Below, piece by piece: positions 58,801 to 61,800 of a DNA stretch of 64,000 nucleotides. The stretch is from Escherichia coli (GTDB lineage Bacteria > Pseudomonadota > Gammaproteobacteria > Enterobacterales > Enterobacteriaceae): assembly GCF_003334355.1 (NCBI RefSeq), contig NZ_QOWP01000004.1, one strand, 5' to 3'. A program made the position numbers. Positions within the stretch are counted from its first letter, which is position 1, and every line of letters starts with the position of its first letter.

Positions 58801-61800
58801 AAATTGCCGCGCTCCAGTGATTCTCACCCACACCATTAAGCTGCGCCACCAGCGTTTTAACATCATAAATTTGCAGCAGTTTCTCCAGCATTGCCTGTGC
58901 GGCATTCCCGGTGCTGTATGAATCGGTTACTGATATATTTTCCTGCATAGATTTCACCGGCCATCTGAGATGGCCGACAGGTTAACATAATTACAGCCAT
59001 TTAGGGCCACGCGCTCAGCCAGCGGATGAAAACGCATCTATCACCTTGTGATCGACACCTTCATTCTCCCCCGCCAGTTCGGCACTGAGCTTCGCCATAA
59101 ACTCGACTAAAAAATGCGCGTTGTGCTGCGCCAGCTGCTTGCCTCTTGCGGTTTGCATGGTTTGCGGTAGCTTCAGCAACTTAGTCTGGAAATGATCCAG
59201 CGCGTAGCGTTTATCATCAAGCGGGCGATGCTGTGCGAGCGGATCTTCACCATCAAACAGCGCCACGCCCAATGCCCCTGAAACGGCAAACACGCGCGCC
59301 AGGCCAATCGCTCCCAGGGCTTCCAGCCGATCTGCATCCTGGACGATTTTAGCTTCCGTGGTTAAGGGGGCGATTTGCGCGCTGAAACTGTGAGCGGCAA
59401 TGGCATGACAAACGGCCTCAATTTTCTCCGCCGGAAATTGCACGAACTCTTCACGGAGCAGGCGACGCGTCTCTTCTGCTGCCAGGATTGAAGAACGCTG
59501 CCTTTGCGGATGATTTTTCGCCAGGCTCACAATATCGTGAAAATAACAGGCGGTTAAAATCACCAGCATATCGACGTCGTCATCTGCCGCCAGCTTCTGT
59601 GCCGTAGCCCAGACGCGGCGAAAATGACACACGTCATGGGCCGCGTCCTGGTGCTGATGATGGTTTTTCAACCAGTTTTCGAACTGTGCCTGCCAGTGTT
59701 GTAAGTCCATACGCGCTCCGTTGCCAAAGAGTAGCCACCTTAGCAGTTTTTATTCATAGCGTCTGCTACGTGCGGGACGAGGTCGGGTGTACCAGGCAAT
59801 GCTGCCTAACAATGCCCCGACCAGAGCCATAAATAAAAATCCGACCAGTGCCCCTAACCACTTTCCCGCGGTAGAGCCTAAATCGCTTTCAAATCCCGAC
59901 ACGGGGGCATCGGGGATCCGGCTCATCACCCAGATGTAACGCGCCATTGCCCAGACGAAATAGCCACACCATGTATAAAAAGCCCACAAAGCCAGTTTGC
60001 CACCAGGGCTGCGAGAGAGTCTCTCTTCCATCTTTGTCGAACCGTATTCCATTTTGAGATAACCCGGAAAATTCAGACTTAGTACTATTATGTGATAAAA
60101 GTCACATTTTTCCACATTGGATGAGCCAGTCAAGACTCACTCATTTTTTGAACAAATAGATAATTTTTGCGCAACGGCAGTGAATACAGGAAAAATCGTT
60201 TTGAGCGATTTTATTTATCTTTGATATCGGCTTTATTAATTCATTTAATCAATATATTAGCACTGATTACAATTATACCTTTTTATTATTCTGTGTCATG
60301 ATGCTTCCGTTATTAGCCTTTTATCGTCTTGTTTATATTTTTTGGGCCGGCATGATGCCGGCTTTTTTTATGCCTTCATTAATGTGCGCCTGATCACACC
60401 AGCCGTTTGGCGCAACAATCATTGATACCCCCTATGTTTCCGCTCAACTCATAACATATTGATATACATTTATAATTTTCATGAATATTTATATTTAGAA
60501 TTCATAATTCTGAATTATATTAAATAGATTAGAAACATTTTGAAATCTTTTAAATACATTTGTTACATGTAATCTTTAAAATAAAATGAACTTCATAGAA
60601 TAGTATCCAAATGTGCTTTTTTTTGGATAACGGCACTTATTGATATATTCATGAAGATTATAATCACAAGGGAATACATAATGAAAAGAAAAGTTCTGGC
60701 AATGCTGGTCCCGGCGTTATTAGTTGCTGGCGCAGCAAATGCGGCTGAAATTTATAATAAAGATGGCAATAAAGTTGATTTCTACGGCAAGATGGTTGGC
60801 GAACGCATCTGGTCAAATACTGATGATAATAACAGCGAAAACGAAGATACCTCCTATGCTCGTTTCGGTGTTAAAGGTGAAACACAAATCACCAGCGAAC
60901 TGACTGGTTTTGGTCAGTTTGAATACAACCTCGACGCCAGCAAGCCCGAAGGCTCTAATCAGGAAAAAACTCGTTTAACCTTCGCAGGTTTGAAATATAA
61001 CGAGTTAGGATCTTTCGACTATGGTCGTAACTACGGTGTTGCTTATGATGCCGCAGCTTATACCGATATGTTAGTTGAATGGGGTGGTGATTCCTGGGCT
61101 TCCGCTGACAACTTCATGAACGGTCGTACCAACGGTGTTGCAACCTACCGTAACTCTGATTTCTTTGGTCTGGTTGATGGTCTGAATTTTGCTGTGCAAT
61201 ATCAAGGTAAGAACAGCAATTGTGGCGTTACTAAACAAAACGGTGATGGCTATGCGTTGTCTGTAGACTACAACATCGAAGGTTTTGGTTTTGTAGGTGC
61301 ATATAGCAAATCTGATCGTACTAATGAACAAGCTAGTGACGGCTACGGTGATAACGCTGAAGTGTGGTCATTAGCAGCCAAGTATGATGCAAATAATATC
61401 TATGCAGCAATGATGTACGGTGAAACCCGCAACATGACCGTTTTGGCTAATGATCATTTTGCAAATAAAACCCAAAACTTTGAAGCTGTTGTACAGTATC
61501 AGTTCGACTTCGGTTTACGTCCGTCTTTAGGCTACGTATATTCCAAAGGCAAAGATCTTTATGCTCGTGATGGACATAAAGGTGTTGATGCTGACCGCGT
61601 AAATTATATCGAAGTTGGTACCTGGTACTACTTCAATAAGAACATGAACGTCTACACAGCATACAAGTTTAACCTGCTGGATAAAGACGATGCAGCGATT
61701 ACCGATGCCGCAACTGATGACCAGTTTGCAGTTGGTATCGTCTACCAGTTCTAATCAGCCAACTCGCCGCGGCGTGTTACTGTAAAACTTAACACTAGCC

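Follow-up and report, generated by a model that had tools for sequence, protein, structure and literature searches.

This analysis concerns a porin gene in a 64,000-nucleotide stretch of Escherichia coli DNA (contig NZ_QOWP01000004.1 of assembly GCF_003334355.1), called the window below, which runs from tar/che/mot/flhDC through the fli operons up to hprS. The window matches strain PSS-12 (from human faeces in Ecuador) at 100% identity over 24 kb, and its identity to ATCC 8739 is 99.6%. The gene occupies the yedS locus. A sequence-only reading had described it as an intact copy of a gene that is broken in K-12, and the state in K-12 is as described: yedS is the pseudogene b4496 in MG1655, and the annotation of a K-12-derived genome calls its copy "porin OmpC; frameshifted; internal stop". 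The locus and the intactness of the copy in the window were borne out as well. This copy is not, however, the K-12 gene itself in unbroken form, the DNA coding for the mature proteins being just 66.8% identical.

The porin gene of the yedS locus

The porin gene of the window is the yedS locus of E. coli, as follows from the gene order in annotated genomes and from the rseX match in the window. In MG1655, the equivalent position (2034051-2035243) is that of the yedS pseudogene, after rseX and before hchA, and in WCHEC005215 the order is yedA, vsr, dcm, yedJ, drpB, porin (WP_000824364.1), hchA, hprS, hprR. The small RNA gene rseX was recognised in the window by its Rfam model (97.7 bits, gathering threshold 50, E 2.3e-13), which gives the order drpB(yedR), rseX, porin, hchA, and the window has the upstream region (99.1% identity to MG1655), the signal-peptide codons (100%), the terminator and the downstream region (95.7%) in common with the other copies of the locus.

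A megablast search with positions 60400-61900 against 5426 complete E. coli genomes found the locus in 4893 of them, nearly always as a single chromosomal copy (5122 chromosomal placements versus 2 plasmid-borne ones). A porin carried by a prophage or another mobile element, like nmpC/Lc, was considered and rejected given these conserved chromosomal flanks, the near absence of plasmid placements and the lack of an adjacent integrase.

The sole long open reading frame in the six-frame list for this region extends over 60651..61754 on the plus strand (367 amino acids, aa). The second Met is likely to be the start codon because a Shine-Dalgarno sequence, AAGGGA, lies 8 nt upstream of it (there is none before the first ATG), because the N-terminus read from there matches, position by position in the alignment, the signal peptides and the cleavage site of OmpF, OmpC and OmpN, and because the NCBI annotation pipeline (PGAP) chose this start in near-identical genomes. 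From this codon the frame comprises 357 codons, and careful re-reading revealed no internal stop or frameshift, just as had been claimed from the sequence alone. The same alignments support the cleavable Sec signal peptide and the aromatic C-terminus of that reading: the protein ends in ...VGIVYQF, of which the final YQF is common to OmpF, OmpC and OmpN, the terminal aromatic residue being the signal for the beta-barrel assembly machinery (BAM). The terminator proposed there was also found in the scan, as the strongest terminator-like site of the region, with a 12-pair stem (7 G-C) at 61797-61828 that is followed by TTTTTATT. The coordinates of these and the other features are collected in Table 1.

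Table 1. Features of the yedS locus in the window (positions are those of the window).
Feature	Position	Strand	Basis or remark
rseX small RNA gene	60280..60369	+	Rfam RF01401; same position annotated in MG1655; own terminator, same strand as porin
CRP-box sequence TAATGTGCGCCTGATCACACC	60380..60400		identical to K-12 yedS CRP footprint; between rseX terminator and AT-rich region
AT-rich upstream regulatory region	60430..60650		22% GC versus 50% for the window; 94.7-99.5% conserved among compared E. coli classes
sigma-70-like promoter candidate TTGTTA-16-TAAAAT	60560..60587	+	about 95 nt upstream of start; consensus match only
intact yedS-locus porin gene, 357 codons plus stop, OmpF/OmpK35-like allele class	60681..61754	+	open reading frame, family models, OmpK35 match
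signal-peptide codons	60681..60743	+	DNA 100% identical across six compared E. coli allele classes; 5' edge of variable block
mature-protein coding block varying between strains	60744..61733	+	63-86% nucleotide identity between allele classes
codon 181, TGT (Cys)	61221..61223	+	predicted non-strand segment, residues 179-186
intrinsic terminator of porin gene, 12-pair stem plus T run	61797..61834	+	scan; kept in all allele classes

Some neighbouring features may be recorded here. The rseX gene directly precedes the porin gene, and its terminator lies at 60344-60364, with a T run that lacks one T by comparison with K-12 and the majority of the other aligned strains. Between the porin terminator and hchA, the annotations of PSS-12 and WCHEC005215 place a 64-aa "hypothetical protein" (WP_001402296.1, at about 61893-62087 on the minus strand), which may be a spurious call. 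Farther away, beside fliE (about 37780-39250), the PSS-12 annotation gives a pseudogene with a DUF5503 domain, a frameshift and an internal stop, and next to it a short piece of an integrase; together they look like what is left of an old insertion. The window also holds another hypervariable surface-protein locus, the flagellin gene at about 29100-30820, which in the PSS-12 annotation codes for a 572-aa member of the FliC/FljB family.

Family, fold and pore residues of the protein

The sequence-only reading took the product for a porin of the OmpC/OmpF/PhoE type with beta-strand character, and family models, solved relatives and a structural model all agree with this. Three NCBIfam models match over the full length (residues 1-357): OmpF (E 5.6e-135), OmpC (E 2.7e-129) and PhoE (E 1.2e-126). 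However, the scores all fall below the curated cut-offs, with 450.2 bits against 583 for OmpF (NF007446, an equivalog model), 431.4 against 484 for OmpC (NF007841, a subfamily model) and 422.6 against 599 for PhoE (NF007544, an equivalog model), so the protein is a member of the general porin family and none of OmpF, OmpC or PhoE. In accord with the score below the OmpC cut-off, PGAP names the allele of the window type plainly "porin" (in PSS-12 and WCHEC005215), whereas the K-12-type and STEC711-type alleles are named "porin OmpC". The representative of its 90% cluster, which is 99% identical to the window protein, carries PF00267 and PF13609, and the full-length similarity places the protein in the general bacterial porin family (Pfam PF00267, Porin_1). 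Its amino acid identity is 62% to OmpF of K-12, 59% to OmpC of K-12, 60-61% to OmpN and 59% to PhoE.

Among solved structures, 48 porins match at E<=1e-78; the best is Klebsiella OmpK35 (9hn1, E 2.6e-150, residues 1-357), and the others include E. coli OmpF (E 4.4e-119) and OmpC (about 1e-99 to 1e-102). With an alignment of 59 sequences as input, AlphaFold2 produced a model that reached a predicted local distance difference test (pLDDT) score of 80 and a predicted template modelling (pTM) score of 0.77 (an earlier 8-sequence alignment gave pLDDT 64), and in this predicted model DSSP assigned 16 strands following the signal helix, which corresponds to the 16-strand antiparallel beta-barrel of general porins. 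Foldseek placed OmpK35 (5o77) and Omp35 (5o78) at the top, with template modelling (TM) scores of 0.87/0.93, ahead of OmpF and OmpC (about 0.83-0.88).

The pore residues are all conserved too. Residues K37, R61, R98, R149, D129 and E133 align with the OmpF constriction residues K16, R42, R82, R132, D113 and E117, the first four on the wall and the last two in loop L3; the alignment thus sets acidic L3 residues opposite a basic wall cluster. The L3 motif itself is VEWGG, as in OmpK35, versus PEFGG. On the strength of the family, the fold and these constriction residues, the protein should function as its relatives do, as a diffusion channel that is filled with water and lined with charges, and it would be expected to form trimers and to conduct in the same way.

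OmpK35 is the OmpF orthologue of Klebsiella and lies at the asnS-ompF locus. The OmpK35 of K. pneumoniae and the Omp35 of Enterobacter aerogenes (5o77, 9hn1, 5o78) resemble the window protein in being the closest structures (64-66% identity in structural alignments) and, for OmpK35, in the VEWGG motif. In contrast, the window gene sits at the dcm-yedJ-drpB locus, and in the tree described below OmpK35 (P0108) is sister to, and outside, the OmpF-like group of the yedS locus.

Allele classes within and beyond E. coli

Compared with the K-12-type locus, the window is near-identical as far as the signal peptide reaches, then very different, and near-identical once more from the final codons onward. 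This was examined by aligning the intergenic-to-intergenic segment of the window with those of MG1655, U15A, E308, STEC711, one O157:H7 strain and one O104:H4 strain. Across these six genomes, identity to the window is 94.7-99.5% over the 547 bp upstream and 100%, in all six, over the 63 bases of the signal peptide; it then drops, with many gaps, to the range given for the mature-coding block in Table 1, and returns to 93.7-96.6% over the 588 bp downstream, except in O104:H4, where an insertion sequence (IS) element intervenes.

For the MG1655 copy, the alignment of the mature-coding part has 169 gap columns, and the window protein is no closer to the intact relatives of the K-12 type than it is to OmpF. 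The K-12 allele is OmpC/OmpN-like, with an L3 of the PEFGGDT type and about 397 codons, whereas the window allele is OmpF/OmpK35-like. The two copies, which are alike in their place between drpB-rseX and hchA, their flanks, their terminator and their protein family, therefore differ both in that the K-12 copy is frameshifted with an internal stop and in that it belongs to another allele lineage, to the intact relative of which the window protein is about 62% identical (aa). Judged from these alignments, the window gene is not the unbroken form of K-12 yedS, and the two proteins are of separate porin lineages.

At the protein level, the window allele is 90% identical to that of U15A (371 aa), 68-69% to that of E308 (352 aa), 64% to that of STEC711 (387 aa) and 60-62% to intact relatives of the K-12 type (397 and 395 aa), and it is thus as distant from the STEC711 and K-12-type alleles as from OmpF, OmpN, OmpC and PhoE. 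The divergence is not confined to the loops, since residues in predicted strands are merely 61-71% identical between classes.

How common each class is was estimated by searching its mature-coding block against the same 5426 complete genomes and counting matches at 95% identity or more. The window class was found in 741 genomes (703 at 99% or more), the U15A class in 903, the E308 class in 1166, the STEC711 class in 380 and the K-12 class in 844, to which a further 801 at 90-95% may be added. Intact copies are exemplified in the window, U15A, E308 and STEC711 classes, and the K-12 allele has intact relatives in MFDS1022581 and in O55:H7 RM12579. Beyond the window class, the other intact classes account for thousands of further genomes. 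Broken copies occur in separate lineages, with a frameshift and a stop in K-12, a frameshift in O157:H7 AC-3, and a frameshift and a disruption in the IS30 region in O104:H4; IS1 insertions were also seen at the locus in some genomes of the window and U15A types. NCBI and UniRef already contain the exact window protein under the name "porin [Escherichia coli]"; it is encoded on 21 contigs, and its 90% cluster has 1540 member sequences. The window gene is therefore known, widely annotated and not rare. In view of the class frequencies and the size of this cluster, an intact porin at the yedS locus is the usual state in E. coli and K-12 is the less typical case, so that the finding of an intact copy is in itself ordinary.

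What is less ordinary is the multi-allelic structure of the locus and its extension across genera. The closest relatives of the window porin outside Escherichia (74-80% aa identity) are found in Enterobacter hormaechei, Citrobacter and the Klebsiella oxytoca group, where they occupy the equivalent site after yedA-vsr-dcm-yedJ(-drpB); it is on this position that the possibility of a displaced OmpF/OmpK35 orthologue was rejected, the syntenic relatives in Enterobacter, Citrobacter and Klebsiella holding the dcm-yedJ-(drpB)-porin site. The closest relatives of the OmpC/OmpN-like STEC711 allele outside Escherichia are Enterobacter proteins (about 80%), again at the equivalent site. In E. hormaechei, the locus contains either a 358-aa OmpF/OmpK35-like porin (gene at 5001-6077 of the extracted locus) or a 388-aa OmpC/OmpN-like porin (5001-6167), and in a comparison of one genome of each type the flanks are 96.7-97.2% identical, the signal-peptide codons 98.4% and the mature-coding blocks 65.5%, a pattern that mirrors the one in E. 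coli.

A neighbour-joining tree of the mature proteins groups them by allele class and not by genus: STEC711 and the Enterobacter proteins form a clade (bootstrap 1.0) that lies with OmpC, OmpN and PhoE, and the window-type alleles lie with OmpK35. Alleles of the same class from different genera (80% aa identity) are closer than alleles of different classes from one species (60-64%). The lineages also differ in length, at about 352-371 aa for the OmpF/OmpK35-like one and about 380-397 aa for the OmpC/OmpN-like one, and the block that would have been exchanged extends from the invariant signal-peptide codons to the last codons and the terminator.

In these data, the cross-genus dimorphism at the yedS site is real. 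Its cause could be an ancient polymorphism, repeated exchange between genera or gene conversion from paralogues. In Neisseria meningitidis, PorB2 and PorB3 are mutually exclusive porin classes at one locus, where PorB is a major and essential protein. By analogy, it may tentatively be proposed, with rather less than even confidence, that yedS/ompS1 is a long-lived "porin cassette" locus in which two deep lineages segregate in both E. coli and E. hormaechei, through trans-genus polymorphism or repeated inter-genus exchange and possibly under balancing selection (by phages, immunity or antibiotics), with the pseudogenes as a third, "null" morph. The resemblance to Neisseria would lie in deeply diverged porin classes alternating at a single chromosomal site; PorB itself is a distant member of the family, as its NCBIfam model matches the window protein with E 1.5e-7 and 31 bits against a cut-off of 480. 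A description of the cross-genus yedS dimorphism was not found in the literature mentioning yedS, of which the coverage was incomplete.

One could go further and regard the locus mainly as that of a variable surface antigen or receptor, in which permeability is secondary and the classes are kept by phage, colicin or immune pressure. The presence of at least five or six classes with 60-90% protein identity between near-identical flanks would fit this, as would the segregation of both deep lineages at the E. hormaechei locus and the grouping of the tree by class. However, the low identity of the strand residues resembles that of old lineages or of recombinational replacement and not that of loop-focused diversifying selection, and low expression, for which the evidence is given below, would weaken selection on a surface antigen. 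Such a primary role is hence possible and on the doubtful side.

Probable expression and role of the yedS-locus porin

Low GC content in upstream DNA is a typical mark of DNA bound by H-NS, and the 220 bp ahead of the start codon have such a composition (Table 1). The neighbouring rseX is repressed by H-NS and StpA (PMC8313858). In K-12, a CRP footprint lies upstream of yedS (PMC12871828), and "yedS (ompS1)" is among the genes, with ompF, ompC, phoE and ompN, that are lowered on sigma-E induction (PMC2731931). The composition of the coding sequence is also informative: the porin gene has 42.7% GC, compared with a median of 52% for 40 neighbouring genes. Codon bias was measured as the fraction of C-ending codons for Phe, Tyr, Asn, Asp, His and Ile and as the share of CTG among Leu codons. 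The window allele scores 0.46 and 0.35, respectively, against 0.71 and 0.78 for ompF and 0.87 and 0.89 for ompC, and on the first measure it is near phoE (0.36) and ompN (0.44); a weak bias is common to all yedS alleles. Together, the low codon bias, the 43% GC of the gene and the 22% GC upstream suggest a weakly or conditionally expressed porin.

The gene is, then, the intact one of the yedS (ompS1-type) locus, and very probably it encodes a classical general diffusion porin, most likely a minor and conditionally expressed one. The precursor would be exported by Sec and cleaved after ANA, recognised by BAM via its C-terminal Phe and folded into a 16-strand beta-barrel, presumably as trimers, with loop L3 folded into the barrel to produce the charged constriction. 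The window allele is one of several deeply diverged classes, OmpF/OmpK35-like, where K-12 has a broken OmpC/OmpN-like one. H-NS-type silencing of the AT-rich upstream region would most likely keep expression low, as befits a "quiescent" porin, and a role in permeability might be expected chiefly in cells that have lost or repressed OmpF and OmpC. A minor role also agrees with the way in which the resistance literature cites YedS.

The sequence-only reading had implied more, namely that the strain has a substantial extra general porin that is expressed in ordinary growth and measurably raises outer-membrane permeability. An intact frame with a good Shine-Dalgarno sequence, a signal peptide and a terminator is in keeping with this, as are the CRP site matched upstream and the conservation across strains of the upstream region and the 5' untranslated region, which suggests that regulation has been maintained. 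Warner et al. (2013, AAC 57:1935) also reportedly found that a functional YedS in a clinical isolate affects carbapenem susceptibility. Against it stand a codon usage far from that of ompF and ompC and near that of phoE and ompN, the 22% GC upstream next to an H-NS/StpA-silenced neighbour (PMC8313858), and the fact that frameshifts or IS insertions have destroyed the gene in several lineages, as would hardly be expected if it had a housekeeping role that is strongly needed, so that substantial expression is improbable. It is very unlikely indeed that the gene, despite its intact frame, is effectively dead in this strain through regulatory decay or the R181C change discussed below, as a pseudogene in waiting, even though the locus is often pseudogenised in E. 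coli and the Cys is private to this lineage, since the DNA upstream shares 99% identity with other strains, residue 181 is predicted to lie outside the strands, where variation is tolerated in porins, and the class is kept intact in hundreds of genomes.

The reading as a minor porin has points against it as well. The best promoter candidate is a weak match to the consensus, and the scan that found it returned 6 sites versus 7.5 expected, that is, no more than chance. Low codon bias is compatible with low expression and does not prove it. The change of codon 181 from CGT to TGT (R181C) could affect folding: it is private to the window lineage, 12 of 12 other members of the same class having Arg, and Cys does not occur in any of the nine other E. 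coli porin sequences compared, namely OmpF, OmpC, PhoE, OmpN, two intact relatives of the K-12 type and intact alleles of three further yedS classes. Finally, YedS is reported by Warner et al. (2013) to be regulated through MicF, but pairing of MicF with the yedS translation-initiation region was not found. The duplex there (-8.3 kcal/mol) is no better than those of shuffled sequences, whereas the MicF-ompF control gave -27.4 kcal/mol (z -4.2), and MicF control via this region was rejected.

A second MicF match was found farther downstream, where nt 10-21 of MicF face codons 30-33 (60768-60779) with 12 contiguous bp in an extended duplex of -21.9 kcal/mol that 0.3% of shuffled small RNAs reach. 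This match is allele-specific (K-12-type alleles lack it) and falls outside the region in which translational control usually operates; it is a lead only. The pairing of RseX with the yedS 5' region is not better than that of shuffled sequences (15%). A search for OmpR boxes with the ompC C1 site sequence, at up to three mismatches, gave no match in the window, and no claim is made for the sequence at about 60553-60575 (ATACATTTGTTACATGTAAT), which looks similar by eye and has wrongly spaced half-sites.

Comparison with other minor porins is consistent with the interpretation as a conditionally expressed porin. Quiescent porins such as OmpS1, OmpS2 and OmpN are expressed at very low levels under standard conditions, until hns/stpA mutation or LeuO/OmpR relieves the silencing. 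Salmonella OmpS1 is a quiescent porin that is silenced by H-NS and StpA and activated by OmpR and LeuO. The window gene would be like it in its expected low expression and long AT-rich regulatory region, and unlike it in length, which for OmpS1 is nearer to that of the OmpC/OmpN-like alleles of about 395 aa than to the 357 aa of the window allele. The porins OmpN and PhoE of E. coli, which are minor or conditional, have in common with the window protein the fold, the family, a 59-61% aa identity and weak codon bias. In contrast, they are encoded at different loci under different regulation, phoE being regulated by PhoB, and the window protein is below the PhoE cut-off. Regulation of ompN is linked to MicC (PMC5745476). 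As for nomenclature, yedS has been equated with ompS1 (PMC2731931), and one source names the K-12-type E. coli protein "outer membrane protein S1".

Compared with K-12, the strain has an additional gene for a potentially functional general porin, and it may thus have an extra general porin at its disposal. This is relevant to predicting the entry of beta-lactams and carbapenems upon the loss of OmpF and OmpC and to reading resistance genotypes, where calls of porin loss that are limited to ompF and ompC can overlook a back-up channel. The allele structure means, moreover, that "yedS" is a set of very different alleles and not one gene in intact or broken states, and the PGAP naming split between "OmpC" and "porin" can confuse pan-genome, resistance and ompC-based analyses. 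Should selection prove to maintain the dimorphism, the locus would lend itself well to the study of how polymorphism in a surface protein persists in the Enterobacteriaceae.

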